This document shows positions 1 to 10,986 of a stretch of 64,000 bases of DNA, one piece after another. Where the stretch lies: sequence record LC473039.1, one strand, 5' to 3'. Origin of the DNA: Escherichia phage L27. Position numbers and translations under genes: made by a program. Each line of letters begins with the position of its first letter. The first letter of the stretch is position 1. The notes beneath the pieces were generated by a model. It was not told where the DNA came from. It ran no database searches and saw only the letters and a list, made by a program, of their open reading frames with translations.

Positions 1-30
1 AATAAAATCCTTAAACTAGGAGATTCAAAA

Positions 31-303
31 ATGTACACTACTAACAACGGTCGCACCTTAAACGTAACCCTACGCCACTATGTAAACGGTGTAATGCACT
101 TCGAGGATTTACAAGCTGAACAGCACATTTTGGATTGGCAACTTGCAGGATTCCAAAAAACTGCTACCGGATACGGGAAAAAGATTCCAACTAGCTGGAA
201 AGTATACTACGAAGGCCGTTTGCGTAGAATTTATCAAGATGTATACAGCAATAGCGCAACAAGTTACATCATGGTAAAAGGTAAAAAATTACACTTAGTA
301 TAA
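31..303 (+). CDS. hypothetical early protein (90 aa)
   Basis: ORF with AGGAGA RBS 8 nt upstream of ATG; first of a same-strand array of small genes. Confidence 0.6.
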   Translation: MYTTNNGRTLNVTLRHYVNGVMHFEDLQAEQHILDWQLAGFQKTATGYGKKIPTSWKVYYEGRLRRIYQDVYSNSATSYIMVKGKKLHLV

Positions 304-389
304 AGTACTTTACAAGGGGCTTATAGTTCGATAAAGTAAGCCCCAGATAAAGAGCTTTACCACTAAATCCTAAATTGGAGAACTTAAAA
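304..389 (+). promoter_or_regulatory. intergenic cassette type 1: hairpin (ggggctta...taagcccc) plus conserved leader/RBS
   Basis: near-identical copy at 1101-1185; shares 3' leader 'actaaatcctaaa(c/t)tggaga..aaaaatg' with the type 2 cassettes. Confidence 0.5.
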
Positions 390-794
390 ATGGCTATTAA
401 TAACCGTGAATTATCAATCTTAAAAGCACGTTTGACCGTTAACCGGATTAATGTTATTACGTCATCAGCACCCGATGAAACATTGCACAACATTATTGGG
501 AAGATTCAAAGTATTATCTTAGACGTTGAAAATGTAAAAAGCTCATTGGCTGACGTTGCAGCAGGTATCACGCTAGACGGCGCACAATATGAAATGTCAG
601 ACATGTTAGGCAAATCTAAGGTAATGAATAAAGAGTTAGATTTGAAAATATTCCGATTTGCTGTTAAAGTGTGGCTATCTGTCGAGTATGATGCTAACTT
701 TGCAATCGCTGACTTTTTCGCCACTTGGTTGCAGCGTAATTTGACTAATCATGACTTCCGTGATATCTGTGATGCAATTTATGCAGAACTCTAA
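390..794 (+). CDS. hypothetical early protein (134 aa)
   Basis: ATG at 390 after GGAGA RBS; track ORF 375 begins at an upstream TTG. Confidence 0.6.
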   Translation: MAINNRELSILKARLTVNRINVITSSAPDETLHNIIGKIQSIILDVENVKSSLADVAAGITLDGAQYEMSDMLGKSKVMNKELDLKIFRFAVKVWLSVEYDANFAIADFFATWLQRNLTNHDFRDICDAIYAEL

Positions 795-803
795 AAAATT
801 TTG

Positions 804-896
804 TTGACACTGGTTTTTTAGATAGATTAAATTACACATCAACGGGGAGGGAATGACCTTCCCCACTAAATAAAGTCCTAAACTGGAGATTCAAAA
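804..896 (+). promoter_or_regulatory. sigma70-like promoter (TTGACA-17-TTAAAT) followed by 5' stem-loop (ggggaggg..ccttcccc) and conserved RBS leader (type 2 cassette)
   Basis: TTGACA at 804-809; hairpin and leader repeated at 2062-2137, 2625-2700, 3222-3297, 3553-3627. Confidence 0.55.
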
Positions 897-1100
897 ATGG
901 CTATTATTAATGGTTTAACCATTGAAACTACACACATCAAAGATATCAAAGTTGGCGATATAGTCCTTTCCCACGGCGTAGAAAAAACTGTCACTGCAAA
1001 AGATATCAAAGAGGATTCTTTCATGGGTAGGACTCTCTTCGGTGATTCTTATTGCTTAGGCTATCTTGCAGTTTTAAAAGTTGTCAAAAATAACAAATAA
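897..1100 (+). CDS. hypothetical early protein (67 aa)
   Basis: ORF directly after conserved cassette. Confidence 0.55.
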   Translation: MAIINGLTIETTHIKDIKVGDIVLSHGVEKTVTAKDIKEDSFMGRTLFGDSYCLGYLAVLKVVKNNK

Positions 1101-1185
1101 AGTACTTTACAATGGGCTTACAGTTCGATAAAGTAAGCCCCAGATAAAGAGCTTTACCACTAAATCCTAAACTGGAGATTCAAAA
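1101..1185 (+). promoter_or_regulatory. intergenic cassette type 1 (second copy)
   Basis: about 90% identical to 304-389. Confidence 0.5.
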
Positions 1186-1749
1186 ATGAAATGCTATCAC
1201 GGAACTACCCTCAAAAACTTTGTAAACCTGCTGAATGGTGGCGACAAGCCGGAAGGAATCTGGAACTGCTCCTACATGGACGATTGTTTCTACGTTTACC
1301 CAATGAACAAGGTTATCAAAACGGAATGTCTGGAAGATGAGGAAGATTCTTACATCCGTGAACGCTGCATTCAAAGCGCTTTAGAGTCTGGGCTTATCAC
1401 GGCAGCTTTCCAAATGGAGACGCAGGAAGTGATTGTTATTGAAATGGATATCCCAGAGGAAGAGCTAGAGGATGATTATTCTTGTGACAACATGAGCGAA
1501 ATTGCCAGCTTTACCGGATACTTTGATAAAAATTGGATTGTTAGCATACACTCAACGAAATTTAGTGCGATGTATGCACCTTTCTTTGTACCAGATGCAA
1601 CTAACCGCAATTTAGGCTATGTTGACGATGATTTGTTAAGTATGGCGAAAATTGTACAGAATAGCGGTGATAGTTCCGTGTTTTGTGACTTGCTGGATAA
1701 AATCACGGCAAACATCACAGAACGCAATCTAAGCGACTTTTTAGGTTAA
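1186..1749 (+). CDS. hypothetical early protein (187 aa), acidic
   Basis: ORF after cassette; no recognisable motifs. Confidence 0.6.
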   Translation: MKCYHGTTLKNFVNLLNGGDKPEGIWNCSYMDDCFYVYPMNKVIKTECLEDEEDSYIRERCIQSALESGLITAAFQMETQEVIVIEMDIPEEELEDDYSCDNMSEIASFTGYFDKNWIVSIHSTKFSAMYAPFFVPDATNRNLGYVDDDLLSMAKIVQNSGDSSVFCDLLDKITANITERNLSDFLG

Positions 1750-1812
1750 TCAATACAAAGACACCAACTTCCAACTTAAGGCCCATACAGGGCCATTTAG
1801 AGGGCTTAAACC

Positions 1813-2046
1813 ATGCTTACAACCATTTATCTCATCCTTTCCATTTGTAACGGCCATTCATGCGATTTTAAAGGGCTTGAAGAGTTCACAGGAAGTAAAG
1901 AAAATGCTATTCAAGTTTGCCAGATAGCAAGACAAGACTACCCCGCCAGTGATGACATACAATGCTACTTTAAGACAGAAGATGAAGACGGCGTCTATTT
2001 TGATAGTGTCGATGGTCAGTATGAAATTATCATTGAAAAAGACTAG
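1813..2046 (+). CDS. hypothetical protein (77 aa) with hydrophobic N-terminus
   Basis: ORF; N-terminal MLTTIYLILSICNG looks like a signal or membrane segment. Confidence 0.5.
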   Translation: MLTTIYLILSICNGHSCDFKGLEEFTGSKENAIQVCQIARQDYPASDDIQCYFKTEDEDGVYFDSVDGQYEIIIEKD

Positions 2047-2061
2047 ACAAGCCTGATAAAA

Positions 2062-2137
2062 GTCTGTAAATTATCAATCAACGGGGAGGGAATGACCTTC
2101 CCCACTAAATAAAATCCTTAAACTAGGAGATTCTAAA
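2062..2137 (+). promoter_or_regulatory. type 2 cassette copy (-10-like gtaaatt, 5' hairpin, RBS)
   Basis: repeat of 827-896. Confidence 0.5.
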
Positions 2138-2479
2138 ATGGCTTATGTAACTGTAATTACCAATAAAGAAGATTCATCTTGGTCAACTCAGGTCAGCGAT
2201 AAGATGTCACCTATGCAGTGCCTAAAATACTTTGAGCAGTGGAACAAAGGCGAGGATGTAAGCCCCTTTCAAGTGATGCAAATCATCCATACGGATAACG
2301 AAGGGAATAAAACGACACTGAATAGCGAGTACTACGCAAATCGTTTTGAGAGTCGAGTTGAAACGATGAAGGGGCTGCGTGAGGCCGGATATGGGCACAT
2401 TGCCGCCTTGTTATGGGATAGCCTACTAAAAAATCAGCGTATCAGCTATGTAAAACCTGAAAAAATATTCATCAGTTAA
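2138..2479 (+). CDS. hypothetical early protein (113 aa)
   Basis: ORF after cassette. Confidence 0.6.
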   Translation: MAYVTVITNKEDSSWSTQVSDKMSPMQCLKYFEQWNKGEDVSPFQVMQIIHTDNEGNKTTLNSEYYANRFESRVETMKGLREAGYGHIAALLWDSLLKNQRISYVKPEKIFIS

Positions 2480-2506
2480 TCAATAACTTACAAAAAACTT
2501 TAAAAA

Positions 2507-2700
2507 AGTGTTGACAACTCCCCTTGACATTGGTAACTTTGTTCGAGGGGGTTTATCTAAAAGGGATTAACTTAAAAGATTCTTTATAGATAAACTTAAA
2601 AAATTGCTTGCAATCAGCTATCAAAACAAGTAAATTACTCATCAACGGGGAGGCAATAACCTCCCTACTAAATAAAGTCCTTAAACTAGGAGATTCAAAA
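2507..2700 (+). promoter_or_regulatory. tandem TTGACA promoter-like motifs plus type 2 cassette copy
   Basis: 'gttgacaactccccttgacattgg' then conserved hairpin ggggaggcaataacctccc and RBS. Confidence 0.5.
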
Positions 2701-3231
2701 ATGAACAAGTTTAAAGCTATCAACTATATTCGTTCAAATAGTGTCATGTCTAAGCCTGTTAAAGATACCTATGAATTCCGTTGCAATGGTGTACACTTTG
2801 CAACCATCACTAAATCAGAAAACGGGGCTTATTACGTTCATCGTCGTAATGTTTCGACCGTTGTAGTCTCTCACTTTATGCAAGCTGTAGCAGAATTATT
2901 ACCGTTATTCTTAGAGATTTATCTAGATGAGTGTAAAAACGTTCACAACCACGTTAAAAACCTTTTAAACGGTTATAAAATGGCTTATGAACGTTCTATC
3001 AAGTCCTTAAACAAGTTCTATAAAGCCCCTGAAAATACTGTATCAATAGCTTATGATGTAAGCGGTGAAATGGTCAGCCTCTCTAATGTAGAACAAATTA
3101 GCCTTTATGATTTACGTCCTAGCGGTTACTCTAAGACTCTTGGTGAAGGCTTATCCTTCAATATCAAGAACTTAGAAAAAACTTTAAAAGATATTGAAAA
3201 AGATATTGACGAGACAATCAAAAGTCTGTAA
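2701..3231 (+). CDS. hypothetical early protein (176 aa)
   Basis: ATG at 2701 directly after conserved RBS leader; track ORF 2608 starts upstream inside the cassette. Confidence 0.6.
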   Translation: MNKFKAINYIRSNSVMSKPVKDTYEFRCNGVHFATITKSENGAYYVHRRNVSTVVVSHFMQAVAELLPLFLEIYLDECKNVHNHVKNLLNGYKMAYERSIKSLNKFYKAPENTVSIAYDVSGEMVSLSNVEQISLYDLRPSGYSKTLGEGLSFNIKNLEKTLKDIEKDIDETIKSL

Positions 3232-3297
3232 ATTGTCAATCAACGGGGAGGCAATAACCTCCCTACTAAATAAAGTCCTTAAACTAGGAGATTCAAA
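3222..3297 (+). promoter_or_regulatory. type 2 cassette copy
   Basis: repeat. Confidence 0.5.
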
Positions 3298-3561
3298 ATG
3301 GAACACGTCGAACTGACCACAATTTTACAAATTGCAACCGACAAAGAGGATGTAGCATTATTCCACCGCATCGAAAGTGATTTGTTCAATGGTGAAATCG
3401 TTAAAGAATCTTACGAAGTTGTCGGATTCAAAGATGGTAAATCATTTGGATTCTTTGACCTCGACAAAGGCAAAGCGGTTACAAAATATGATGTTTTATC
3501 TTGTGAGATTCTGACAAAATACAACGAAAAAAGGCTTGCAACATACGCCAATATGCAGTAA
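3298..3561 (+). CDS. hypothetical early protein (87 aa)
   Basis: ORF after cassette. Confidence 0.6.
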   Translation: MEHVELTTILQIATDKEDVALFHRIESDLFNGEIVKESYEVVGFKDGKSFGFFDLDKGKAVTKYDVLSCEILTKYNEKRLATYANMQ

Positions 3562-3627
3562 ATTACTAATCAACGGGAGGCGATAACCTCCCCACTAAAT
3601 AAAACCCTTAAACTAGGAGATTCAAAA
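3553..3627 (+). promoter_or_regulatory. type 2 cassette copy
   Basis: repeat. Confidence 0.5.
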
Positions 3628-3876
3628 ATGGCAACTATCCGCGCTACTGTTAACGAGTTCGGTTTTTCCTCTCTGGATGTTAAATTTGACATTGCATGCA
3701 CTGATAACGCCTTTGAAATGGTGAAAGGTCTTATCAGTCAGACCATCAAAGATTATAATCCTTCGGATGAGTTCTGGGAGGAAACAAAACAAGAAGTTCT
3801 CAAGGATGGTTATACTTATCACTATTGGGGAGAAAAAATCGTCTCCCTGTACTACAACAAACAAGATTATAACTAA
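3628..3876 (+). CDS. hypothetical early protein (82 aa)
   Basis: ORF after cassette. Confidence 0.6.
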   Translation: MATIRATVNEFGFSSLDVKFDIACTDNAFEMVKGLISQTIKDYNPSDEFWEETKQEVLKDGYTYHYWGEKIVSLYYNKQDYN

Positions 3877-3915
3877 TCGACGCAGCGGGGCTATTTAGCC
3901 CCAGATACCTTCAAA

Positions 3916-3940
3916 GCCCCTTTTCATAGGGGCTTTTTTA
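3916..3940 (+). terminator. rho-independent terminator
   Basis: stem agcccct/aggggct followed by TTTTTT; an additional hairpin ggggctatttagcccc lies just upstream. Confidence 0.7.
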
Positions 3941-3944
3941 CGTC

Positions 3945-5610
3945 TTATCGAATCTCTATACAATCCTTTCCCTTTCCTTTCCAGAATCTTCCCACTGATT
4001 CAATAGAATCTATCTCATACCTTAAAAAGTAATAACTCTATAGCTTACTCTATAGCCCCTTATCAAATCAACTTAAATATAAGCCCATAACCCGAAAGGG
4101 AAGGGCAACCATTTAATTGGTATTGTTACCAATCCCTAAACGCTCTATAAAGCTCTATAACAGCCTTATCAACCTAACTTAAGGGATTGCATTAACTCAC
4201 CCTTAAAAGCTCTTTACAGGGCTTTATAGAGGCTTAAAAGAATCTTATAAGGGTGTAAGCTTTACCATATCGTTAGTTCCTTGTGAATATCTATAAATGG
4301 CTATGAGATAGGACTCTATCGAATCCTCTTGTTAGTGTCTTAAAAGTATGTTATAGGGACTTAAAAGTTACTTCAAAGTTACGTGAAAGAGGCTATAAAG
4401 TTACGTAAATGCTAGCCCCCTTAACATTTTCTTAACAATTTCTTAACAATCCCTACATAGTTATACTTGTTAGCCCCTTGTTAAATCTCTGTTAAGACCA
4501 TGTAAAAGCCTTGTAAGAACCTTTGACATAGCCTTAAAAGCTCCTGTAAAGCCCTATAAAGAGCTATCCATACAGTTGAGGGGTAAATACTAGGGAGAGA
4601 CTAAAAAGAACCTATAAAGAGCCTATAGAGAGCTTTTAAAAGGTATGTTTAAGGAATCACTAAGAAAGGGAAGGGAACGATAAGAAAAGAGTAGTGACCA
4701 TGTTAACAGCTTGTTAAAAAGATTAAACACTTGTTAGGAACTTGTTAATTATCTTAACAAAATAACCCTTAAAAATTAACTTCTTAGACCTTGTTAGATA
4801 TCTGTTAAGCATCTGTAAAGACTATTCAGCAACTGTTAAGAAACTGTTACACCCCTGTTAGTTCTGTTAAGAATCTGTTAAGACCTTTGAAGAGTTGTTA
4901 AAAAGGTGTTAGAACTGTTAAGAGATTGTTAATGATATTTTAAGATTTTGCAAAGTACTTGTAAGGGAGCTGTTAAGGGCTACCAAGCAGATATACATCC
5001 TAATCAGATATTTTTCAGTTCCTTCAAAGACCCTAAAAAATGACTTGATAGTCCTATTTTATAAAAATTTTAAAATTCTGAATAATTACCTATACAGTCT
5101 TTCTAAAATACAGGTAGAAACAGGCTTATAAGATACCTTGTTAGTGCCGTGTTAGACCTTGTGAGATAAGGTCTGTAAAGATATTCCTGTTAAGTTTGTT
5201 AAAACAGTCTATATAGAGGCTTAGTATTTCCTAGTGAACACCTATAGAGGGTATCATAGCTGACATAATGGGTTACTGTTAAGTAACACAGATAACCTAG
5301 AGATTAAGAGGTGTATAGGAGCTTCTAAGAGGGTATAGAGAGATGGTTAAGGTGATTGTATAGGTTGTTAAGAAGGCTTGTTAGAAGAATGTTTAGAAGG
5401 CTTATTAAAGGGCTAGTTAGAAGGGTTATACAGGGGGCTATTAAGACCACTAGATAATTACTAAGATACTATATAGTACTATATAACTGTATATATATAG
5501 AGAGTAAGATTAAGAAGGTTGTTAAGAAGGATAGATATTTTATTCACATATGATGGTGACCCAGAGGTTGGGACAACCGATAAAATTTTATAAAAAATAT
5601 AAATTTCGTA
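3945..5610. repeat. ORF-free AT-rich region dense in short degenerate words ((c/t)tgtta(a/g), ctataaag, gttagaagg)
   Basis: no ORF of 60 aa or more in any frame over about 1.7 kb; lies between convergent transcription units. Confidence 0.5.
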
Positions 5611-5620
5611 AATTTTACTC

Positions 5621-5646
5621 AATAAAAAGCCCCCAATTAAGGAGGC
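5621..5646 (-). terminator. rho-independent terminator (minus strand)
   Basis: minus-strand hairpin gcctcc/gggggc followed by TTTTTATT. Confidence 0.6.
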
Positions 5647-5658
5647 TCTTAAGATATT

Positions 5659-7038: not shown

Positions 7039-7572
7039 CTATAATTGTAGGTTGCATTCTTTACTTACCTCTTCAAGTTTAACCTCAGAATCCTTAAGAC
7101 GTTTCTTATGAACTCTGAATCTCATTAGTGCGATGATGATACCAACTAAAGGGACAGCATACAAGTACCAAACATCATATACCTTTGCAGTAATCTGTGT
7201 AATGGTTAAGTCTTGAGCTATGGAACTGATTGCTGATACTGCCAGTAACATTACTAAGAAGAACGCCAATACTATAACAATACTTAGGCAGCCTCTGGCA
7301 TGGTGTTCATGCTTAATACACTTGTTCTTTTCGTCAACAACCCTGTTGTAGTCGTTTGTAAAGTCTCTGTAGAAAGCTTTCAAGTATTCTTTATTGTAGC
7401 CTTCAAAGCAACCTGTACCGTACCAATAATCACCACCAAAATGTGCTATGATACCGGTATCTCCGTTTGGTTTGGTTACTCTCAAAGAAGTATGATGACG
7501 AGTATCCTGATAATCTATCTTATATCTTTCTTCGTAAATCATTTTCCAACCCCTCTCAATCGTTTGTTCCAC
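7039..7572 (-). CDS. hypothetical membrane protein (177 aa)
   Basis: long hydrophobic stretch (LSIVIVLAFFLVMLLAVSAI...). Confidence 0.55.
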   Translation of the reverse strand: MEQTIERGWKMIYEERYKIDYQDTRHHTSLRVTKPNGDTGIIAHFGGDYWYGTGCFEGYNKEYLKAFYRDFTNDYNRVVDEKNKCIKHEHHARGCLSIVIVLAFFLVMLLAVSAISSIAQDLTITQITAKVYDVWYLYAVPLVGIIIALMRFRVHKKRLKDSEVKLEEVSKECNLQL

Positions 7573-10354: not shown

Positions 10355-10986
10355 TAGCCCTCCCCTGCTGGGTTAACTGTAACTGTTGCTGCATTAGATG
10401 TTACAGAACCACCTACACCAGTAACTACACAAGTGTAGCTTCCTGCATCTGCTTGTAGAGCACCAGACTTGCTATAGGTAGCATTTGTAGCTGAAGGGAT
10501 GTCAGAGCCATCTTTCTTCCACTGATAACCTGTTGCACCTGTTGCAATAACGCTTAGGGTAAGTGTGCCACCTTCATTTACTGTTTGATTGGTTGGTTGC
10601 TGGGTGATTACTGGTGGCTTGATAGCATCCTTCAACTTAGCATTCAACATTGAGAATGGTTTAACTCTTGCCAGCCATTCACAATAAACTGTATCAACGT
10701 CTTTACCATTGATAATTGCATATTGTAAGTCCATGAAGAAGTCAGACGTTCTCATTTGAGCACCAACGCTGTAAAGCAACTCATCACTAAATGGAACTTT
10801 GTAGTCTGGTTTGTAGTCAAACTTCTTAACTTCTGCAATATCAGCTTCAGGCCAATACGAACTATAGGTAAGTGGTAAAATAGCCTCTTGATATGTTCTA
10901 AAATCATATCTCTTACCAGCCTTTACATTCGCAACGAAGCCCTTCACAAACTCTTTGAAGTCTGGGTAAGTCTTTGCTTTAATCAT
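10354..10986 (-). CDS. hypothetical protein with C-terminal Ig-like domain (210 aa)
   Basis: C-terminal about 90 aa has Ig-like pattern (TLTLSV...YQWKKDG...SYTCVVTG...TVTV); N-terminal domain is paralogous to 10983-11354. Confidence 0.6.
   Translation of the reverse strand: MIKAKTYPDFKEFVKGFVANVKAGKRYDFRTYQEAILPLTYSSYWPEADIAEVKKFDYKPDYKVPFSDELLYSVGAQMRTSDFFMDLQYAIINGKDVDTVYCEWLARVKPFSMLNAKLKDAIKPPVITQQPTNQTVNEGGTLTLSVIATGATGYQWKKDGSDIPSATNATYSKSGALQADAGSYTCVVTGVGGSVTSNAATVTVNPAGEG

Follow-up and report, generated by a model that had tools for sequence, protein, structure and literature searches.

Reiterated promoter, stem-loop and leader cassettes ahead of unrelated small genes in a Felixounavirus: probable modules for expression and gene shuffling

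The left end of a 64,000-nucleotide stretch of Escherichia phage L27 DNA (LC473039.1), called the window below, carries an array of small genes most of which are preceded by one of two types of reiterated cassette. It is probable that these cassettes are self-contained expression modules of the promoter-early stem-loop (PeSL) type and that they also act as joints for gene shuffling in the early region of Felixounavirus genomes. Each cassette would give one small accessory gene its own promoter for the host sigma-70 polymerase, a G/C stem-loop and a standard leader with a ribosome-binding site (RBS).

A sequence search with bases 1–4500 showed the window to be a segment of a Felixounavirus genome (subfamily Ounavirinae; Felix O1-like myoviruses). 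Nearly all of the 256 matching phage records were Felix O1-like myoviruses and the best match, to Escherichia phage mio, was 90.6% identical over the full length. In the annotations of AYO145A and mio this region is a series of small genes, all on one strand and labelled ‘hypothetical protein’, that ends at a rho-independent terminator. Nine genes were found between positions 31 and 3876. A preliminary description of this DNA had recognised two reiterated cassette types with a common 3′ leader, and both were recovered by inspection of the sequence, by a repeat finder and by pattern and profile searches. It had also given a cassette to each of eight small genes. Eight genes are indeed led by a cassette of type 1 or type 2, but a ninth, at 1813–2046, has none. 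The nine proteins showed no mutual similarity in an all-against-all BLASTP comparison (E about 1 for the best pair), fall one each into nine PHROGs, all of unknown function, and have no Pfam match. The array genes are thus unrelated ORFans, and it is the regulatory cassette that is reiterated and not the genes, contrary to the earlier suggestion of modular gene duplication. The relative Michonne, described below, does have a cassette duplicated in tandem together with its gene, but the window does not.

Pattern searches confined the cassettes to positions 1–3630 of the 64 kb, with 0.00–0.04 chance matches expected, and profile searches of the window gave two type 1 and five type 2 matches. This confirms that the cassettes are real and far above the chance level. 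The array continues past the left edge of the window, as mio and AYO145A have about six further cassette-led genes upstream. No cassette matched any Rfam entry at E up to 1, and nothing similar was present in the 5,426 E. coli genomes searched. A known RNA family and a host-derived origin, or one resembling repetitive extragenic palindromic elements, were therefore rejected.

Copies of the cassettes were gathered from the window, from IMG/VR contigs and from five annotated relatives (AYO145A, mio, Felix O1, Citrobacter phage Michonne and Erwinia phage M7). The 14-mer scan of IMG/VR gave many single chance matches, and only loci with matches to the cassette profiles were kept. This left about 180 distinct copies from roughly 35 related loci, of which 100 of type 2 and 77 of type 1 were aligned. 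Both types combine a sigma-70-type promoter and a G/C stem-loop with a common leader, a Shine-Dalgarno (SD) site and an ATG. Across the whole collection the promoter hexamers and the spacing between them are the most conserved positions, and the spacers vary; the stem-loop is retained in almost every copy. The cassettes have the SD and ATG of the downstream gene at their 3′ end and the stop codon of the upstream gene at their 5′ end. The whole 5′ untranslated region (UTR) of 35–45 nt is conserved, and GATAAAG and the SD sequence GGAG do not vary between genera. A generic promoter scan picks up five of the cassettes, and two are marked as promoters in the AYO145A annotation. The hexamers, the folds and the SD with its ATG support the earlier view of the cassettes as promoter, hairpin and RBS modules. 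Outside this collection, record GU169904 (Staphylococcus phage SA1, 147 kb) gave seven matches to type 2, the best about 93% identical, and also matched the type 1 query, which suggests that the record includes Felix O1-like sequence.

Five complete type 2 copies were identified in the window by sequence and by the repeat finder, as had been stated earlier (Table 1). In addition a leader and SD cut by the window edge were assigned to type 2 from the leader sequence and from the full type 2 cassettes of AYO145A, mio and Felix O1. The type 2 layout is an A-tract, TTGACA, 17 nt, TAAATT, 10 nt and then the hairpin. When the 100 distinct copies were aligned on the first base of the hairpin, the −35 hexamer showed base frequencies of T99 T82 G94 A71 C60 A62 and the −10 hexamer T97 A99 A89 A86 T71 T100. 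No base of the 17-nt spacer was conserved. The distance from the −10 to the hairpin is fixed at 10 nt (consensus nnnnATCAAC); the −10 is TAAATT and does not abut the hairpin in the form ‘gtaaatt’, as had first been described. Both hexamers are kept even where they lie within, or overlap the stop codon of, an unrelated upstream gene. Thus TAA at 3229–3231 and at 3559–3561 is at once an upstream stop codon and the start of a type 2 −10, and TAG at 2044–2046 is a stop codon and the start of a −35.

Usual promoter geometry places the start on the A of a C-A step 7–8 nt past the −10. Such a C-A motif is found at this distance in type 2, giving the predicted starts of Table 1. The hairpin would then begin at about +4 of the predicted transcript, 2–4 nt from its 5′ end, which agrees with the earlier placing of the hairpin at the 5′ end of the RNA. 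By themselves the hairpins have calculated energies of −11 to −15 kcal/mol, and the whole leaders −13.6 to −18.8 kcal/mol (z −2.6 to −3.5 versus shuffles). About 30 of 35 distinct hairpin segments fold, using several stem sequences: GGGGAGGG/CCTTCCCC, GGGAGG/CCTCCC, GGGAAGG/CCTTCCC, GGGGC/GCCCC, GGGC/GCCC and GGGA/TCCC. The stems are of 6–8 bp.

Two versions of the leader occur, TCCT-TAAACT-AGGA and TCC-TAAACT-GGA (for example at 2115–2128 and 879–890). The T and the A that distinguish them always occur together and add one base pair to a mini-stem that would sequester part of the SD, and the leaders of Erwinia phages retain an analogous CCTT...AAGG. As there are only two haplotypes, the T/A pair is no proof of structure. 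The mini-stem is found in all copies, has an energy of only about −2.7 kcal/mol and lacks covariation, and is left as unproven.

The window has two type 1 copies, one ahead of ATG 390 and the other ahead of ATG 1186, which share 96% identity over 82 nt. TTTACA is invariant in the 77 distinct copies, which come from three genera, as are positions 1, 2 and 6 of the −10 (T, A and T) at a spacing of 17 nt. The −10 reads TAAAGT, TATCTT, TAAGAT, TAGTAT, TAATCT and so on, and sits in the loop of the hairpin, where the other positions vary. The inner stem is GGGGCTTA/TAAGCCCC, with a variant GGGGTTATC/GATAGCCCC and the form GGTGTTTAGA/TCTAAGCACC in Erwinia phages, and occupies the interval between the −35 and the predicted start, ending one base short of the latter. 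Outside it lies an inverted repeat, ATAAAGTACTTTAC ... ATAAAGAGCTTTAC, with which it makes up a hairpin of 64 nt and about 20 bp (6+5+9 bp), and in cassette C1 the stop codon of the upstream gene (301–303) sits within the outer stem. The two copies fold with −24.3 and −22.5 kcal/mol (z about −4.2). In the type 1 alignment 96% of the cells were paired, versus 32–56% with the partners slid. GC-to-UA double changes were seen at one inner and one outer pair, the outer one in nine sequences, and the pair closing the loop occurs as several pair types. The middle helix never varies and therefore gives no covariation information. In a subfamily, type 1b, the upstream palindrome is broken (ATAGATTTCTTTAC) and a compensating change preserves its pairing with the downstream repeat. 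Type 1, too, is predicted to be a promoter, which the preliminary description had missed, and its hairpin lies upstream of its own predicted start. Because the 5′ arm precedes that start, the hairpin could form only in read-through RNA or in DNA.

Base pairs of the G-U kind are more frequent than A-C juxtapositions, 135 versus 20 in type 1 and 82 versus 39 in type 2, these being counts of events that are not independent. Given that G-U exceeds A-C, pairing in sense-strand RNA fits better than a DNA cruciform or antisense RNA.

Comparison of gene content among relatives showed that the cassettes are breakpoints for gene gain, loss and exchange, a feature that the preliminary description had also missed. 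Gene 897 is absent from many relatives and gene 3298 from several, and Felix O1 is without genes 897, 1186 and 1813. Genes 1186 (1186–1749) and 3628 (3628–3876) each occur as two alleles with about 55–60% protein identity between flanks that are 90–99% identical, which suggests replacement of whole genes between cassettes. In global alignments with eight relatives, all indels of about 90 nt or more have both their ends in segments that are cassette or intergenic, a class covering about 20% of the region. For gains and losses of whole genes, both ends lie within cassettes. The junctions at sites of gene gain or loss are single, intact, chimeric cassettes. In Felix O1 the cassette at the site of the missing gene 3298 equals C6 until GTAAATT and C7 thereafter, and the one where 897–1813 is missing has the promoter of C2 and the leader of C4. 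From one event to the next the crossover falls in a different zone, which is what homologous recombination in shared sequence would give. Within one genome the cassettes homogenise one another: C5 and C6 are 98% identical from hairpin to ATG versus 84–91% to their positional counterparts in AYO145A and mio, and in those two phages other pairs of cassettes are the near-identical ones.

Duplications were also found. Michonne (KT001916) has at 3204–3633 a perfect 430-bp tandem duplication of one cassette and its 258-nt gene, and one IMG/VR contig has a 90-bp cassette duplicated without a gene. Two duplication junctions fall outside shared sequence. At the Michonne junction the ATG of the next cassette is joined directly to CTTTACA. 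The Michonne duplication may have come from a genuine unequal exchange, or it may be an artefact of assembly.

In T4-like phages, PeSLs (Arbiol et al. 2010, PMC2839356; Comeau et al. 2014, PMC4122927) are repeated early promoters that carry a Gn-loop-Cn stem-loop, in one of five registers, and have an SD and ATG at the 3′ end. They cluster before ORFans in hyperplastic regions, bound the indels of close relatives and form mini-circles, and terminator activity has been shown for one of them. All the sequence-level features of PeSLs are present in the cassettes: an AT-rich tract and a sigma-70-like promoter with 17-nt spacing (the PeSLs include a TTTACW / TAYWAT variant), a stem-loop in different registers (in the −35/−10 interval, overlapping the −10 or past it), an SD and start codon at the 3′ end of the motif, clustering upstream of ORFans in a variable region, and motifs that bound the indels and replacements between close relatives. 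Since the window is from a Felixounavirus and not from a T4-like phage, membership is by architecture and behaviour and not by lineage. The cassettes differ from the T4-type elements in that the whole 35–45 nt 5′ UTR is conserved, the type 2 hairpin lies past the predicted start and would hence belong to the mRNA, in type 1 an additional outer inverted repeat encloses the whole promoter, and the hairpins have no U-tract. In copies from Erwinia phages the −35 or the −10 lies within the hairpin loop, and one such hairpin is a true terminator with a T-run.

Some of these elements had been seen before in another form. In the genome paper of Felix O1 (Whichard et al. 2010, PMC3185647) direct repeats of 57 bp and 39 bp were listed and not interpreted, five promoters were predicted, located elsewhere, and the temporal control was stated to be unknown. 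The 57-bp repeat corresponds to the core of type 1, and the 39-bp one covers the type 2 promoter as far as ATCAAC. The repeats and the cassettes are one and the same; promoter, hairpin and recombination role went unrecognised there, and the wV8 genome paper does not discuss promoters or repeats. What is new here is thus the promoter, hairpin and recombination reading in the Ounavirinae; PeSLs in T4-like phages and the Felix O1 repeats as such were already known.

How the cassettes might work can be set out as follows. Host RNA polymerase would start at the C-A step 7–8 nt past the −10, and a type 2 mRNA would open with pppAAC followed immediately by the hairpin. Such a hairpin should hinder RppH and 5′-end-dependent RNase E and so lengthen the life of the mRNA. 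Stem-loops at the 5′ end protect E. coli mRNAs, as in the ompA and papA 5′ UTRs (Emory, Bouvet, Arnold, Bricker and Belasco, as listed in PMC3997798). The type 2 arrangement, a stable hairpin separated by a few unpaired nucleotides from the predicted 5′ triphosphate, then an AU-rich single-stranded leader and the RBS, is similar, though there is no sequence relation and the 5′ end of the cassette RNA is a predicted one. A role as 5′ stabiliser is therefore plausible for type 2. It cannot apply to type 1 because the type 1 hairpin is absent from the RNA of its own promoter. The type 1 hairpins and that of a further element at 2511–2553 could arise only in transcripts that read through from the upstream gene, where they may serve as insulators, by attenuating weakly or by forming a 3′ barrier against exonucleases. 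The stem-loops may act as 5′ stabilisers, 3′ barriers, attenuators or processing sites. Near-identity over 60–100 nt between genes would let homologous recombination delete, insert, duplicate or exchange genes, and recombination from cassette to cassette would always rebuild an intact promoter and RBS.

Several results weigh against this explanation or narrow it. The type 2 hairpin alignment is 91% paired with just 7 cells altered on both sides; its covariation score, run on a MAFFT alignment partly blurred by register shifts among length variants, was weak, being reached in 19 of 500 shuffles; and stems of G-runs and C-runs pair well even when slid. The type 2 structure is conserved, largely through sequence identity, and covariation does not prove it. 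In view of the few double changes and the slid pairing, the hairpin was treated as conserved and covariation proof is not claimed. The counts of conservation over cassette copies are not independent, owing to common descent and gene conversion. Selection against indels within genes would alone drive breakpoints into intergenic DNA. As the searched literature held no study of start sites, 3′ ends, half-lives or RNA-seq for a Felixounavirus, the promoter activity and the start sites of the cassettes are given as predictions. Timing is mixed. Reverse transcription PCR on Felix O1 found genes 16, 20, 21 and 22 maximal at 5 min after infection, while the peak for genes 17, 19 and 23 came at 25 min (PMC3185647). 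The earlier label ‘early’ thus fits three of the five Felix O1 homologues of array genes (20, 21 and 22), but genes 19 and 23 have type 2 cassettes and yet peak at 25 min and not at 5 min. Finally, the terminator role claimed for PeSLs is doubtful here, given the lack of U-tracts and a canonical terminator at the end of the array. No U-run follows a cassette hairpin in the window (the tails are ACTAAATAAAG and AGATAAAGAG) and no cassette was among the terminator-like sites, so the hairpins were rejected as intrinsic terminators, and efficient intrinsic termination at the cassettes is unlikely.

The stem-loops could instead be mainly RNA processing sites, with most transcription coming from a few upstream promoters. 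The early genes of T7 share upstream promoters and are separated by structured RNase III sites (R0.3 to R1.3). The type 1 hairpin would be cut similarly by RNase III in read-through polycistronic RNA, and RNase E would cut the AU-rich linker ACUAAAUAAAG past the type 2 hairpin, so that monocistronic mRNAs end in protective hairpins. The inter-gene structures of the window are like the T7 sites in that they would leave hairpins at message ends, and the 64-nt type 1 hairpin, about 20 bp with internal loops, reaches the two-turn length of RNase III (about 20 bp) in its three segments. Its stability, the GC-to-UA change of the outer helix in nine sequences and the promoterless conserved hairpin before gene 1813, which has a different stem in Michonne, all speak for processing, as does the G-U excess on the sense strand, since this requires RNA spanning the whole element, that is, read-through. 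However, unlike the T7 sites, each cassette has its own promoter signature, and processing leaves unexplained why −35 and −10 letters, TA...T in the type 1 loop among them, are invariant and spaced by 17 nt. RNase III substrates need stems longer than 6–8 bp, so that the type 2 stem is too short and the earlier proposal of an RNase III site is unlikely for it. Covariation support is missing from the invariant middle helix of type 1, and ribosomes terminating at the upstream stop codon within the outer stem would melt that stem. Processing as the main function is accordingly judged unlikely. A different suggestion is that the palindromes are DNA operators for a phage regulator that times the array or shuts it off, or the leader an RNA target of a RegA- or RegB-like repressor or nuclease. 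The candidates are TAAAGTACTTTA over the type 1 −35, ATAAAGAGCTTTA at +3 to +16 and the G/C inverted repeats. A perfect 12-bp palindrome does lie over the type 1 −35 with a near-palindrome just past the predicted start, both nearly invariant; GATAAAG and the SD sequence are invariant across genera; and the Felix O1 array genes differ in timing. Against this, the broken palindrome of type 1b with its compensated pairing speaks more for one long hairpin than for two independent operators, the excess of G-U over A-C points to RNA and not to recognition of duplex DNA, the SD mini-stem shows no covariation and no regulator was identified. We see little chance that this accounts for the cassettes.

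The small ORFans separated by structured repeats also recall integrons, the repeats bound whole-gene indels, and mini-circles of PeSLs have been reported in T4-like phages. The cassettes would then be site-specific sites of an integron-like system, their hairpins recognised by a recombinase or a structure-specific nuclease. This is highly improbable. The crossovers vary, one lying within the −10 and another within the hairpin and leader, as in general homologous recombination; the two duplication junctions are outside shared sequence; and PHROG and Pfam scans of the array found no integrase-like gene among its genes. An addition to the preferred reading of promoter modules and joints, rated as quite unlikely, is that the strictly conserved transcribed part of the cassettes is a common operator for a candidate post-transcriptional regulator of the phage, either a RegA-like repressor or a RegB-like GGAG-specific nuclease. 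This part consists of the 5′ hairpin containing GGAG, the AU-rich linker and the small stem of CCU with the GGAG/AGGA of the SD, and is kept in Escherichia, Salmonella and Citrobacter phages and modified in Erwinia phages. If it were such an operator, the regulator would shut down all accessory genes of the array together, and a gene captured between two cassettes would automatically gain a promoter, an RBS and shut-off control.

If the cassettes are PeSL-type modules, the idea that standard regulatory cassettes both express accessory genes and act as joints for shuffling them extends beyond T4-like phages to the Ounavirinae, the Felix O1 group widely used for typing and biocontrol of Salmonella and E. 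coli. Likely promoters could be assigned where the Felix O1 genome paper found none, and cassette shuffling would explain why phages otherwise about 90% identical differ in their sets of small early genes. As compact, portable promoter-leader modules the cassettes may offer natural sites for gene insertion or removal in phage engineering. Type 2, with the hairpin inside the predicted mRNA, and type 1, with the hairpin just outside it, form a natural pair for testing the role of the stem-loop.

Table 1. Coordinates of the cassettes, genes and other features at the left end of the window. Starts (base and position) are predictions; z is relative to shuffles.
Feature	Position	Strand	Parts	Basis
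Type 2 leader and SD, cut by window edge	1–30	+	ATG 31; serves gene 31–303	repeat finder
C1, type 1	300–389	+	−35 TTTACA 309–314; −10 TAAAGT 332–337; inner hairpin 316–344; outer inverted repeat 301–313 with 348–360; predicted start A345; SD GGAG 377–380; ATG 390	sequence, repeat finder, promoter scan; fold −24.3 kcal/mol, z −4.2
C2, type 2	795–896	+	A-tract 794–799; −35 TTGACA 804–809; −10 TAAATT 828–833; predicted start A841; hairpin 844–864; SD 885–888; ATG 897	promoter scan (10/12 match); fold −15.2 kcal/mol, z −3.9
C3, type 1	1097–1185	+	−35 1106–1111; −10 1129–1134; hairpin 1114–1141; predicted start A1142; ATG 1186	sequence, promoter scan, fold
C4, type 2	2044–2137	+	−35 TAGACA 2044–2049; −10 2067–2072; predicted start A2080; hairpin 2083–2103; ATG 2138	sequence, promoter scan, fold
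C5, type 2	2601–2700	+	−35 TTGCAA 2608–2613; −10 2631–2636; predicted start A2644; hairpin 2647–2666; ATG 2701	sequence, fold
C6, type 2	3200–3297	+	−35 TTGACG 3206–3211 (inside upstream gene); −10 3229–3234; predicted start A3242; hairpin 3245–3264; ATG 3298	sequence, promoter scan, fold
C7, type 2	3530–3627	+	−35 TTGCAA 3536–3541; −10 3559–3564; predicted start A3572; hairpin 3575–3592; ATG 3628	sequence, fold
Nine small ORFan genes	31–303, 390–794, 897–1100, 1186–1749, 1813–2046, 2138–2479, 2701–3231, 3298–3561, 3628–3876	+		open reading frame (ORF) list
Intercistronic hairpin	1780–1794	+	GGCCC-ATACA-GGGCC; before gene 1813; no promoter, no cassette	
Promoter-with-hairpin element	2511–2553	+	TTGACA 2511–2516; 17 nt; TAACTT 2534–2539; enclosing stem CTCCCCT 2518–2524 / AGGGGG 2546–2551	sequence, promoter in AYO145A annotation; fold
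Hairpin at array end, resembling type 1 inner stem	3887–3906	+	GGGGCTATTTAGCCCC-AGATA	sequence
Canonical intrinsic terminator	3913–3940	+	stem 3913–3934, T-run to 3940	−29.7 kcal/mol, z −5.1

The remaining elements of the region lie between or beyond the cassettes. The element at 2511–2553, a strong promoter-like site, is preceded by an A-rich tract and has the layout of type 1, with no ORF downstream before 2701 (about 150 nt). Possible readings are a tandem promoter for gene 2701, what is left of a lost gene, or the point where a small RNA begins. In Michonne the corresponding place is occupied by an ORF of 46 aa. The counterpart in Michonne (about 7130–7150) of the hairpin at 1780–1794 reads GCCCC-GCATA-GGGGC, so that the structure is kept and the sequence differs. 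The AYO145A annotation has a terminator at the same place as that at the end of the array.

About 1.75 kb (3880–5650) between the plus-strand array and genes on the minus strand has no ORF of 60 aa or more. It is crowded with short repeats, CTGTTAAG, CTTGTTAR and the reverse TTCTTAACAA, spaced 11–12 nt apart and in both orientations, and it also carries the motifs CTTAAAAG and CTATAAAG. The region looks like an iteron-type protein-binding or origin-like region, and a similar run of repeats is present in Michonne at about 10870–10980.

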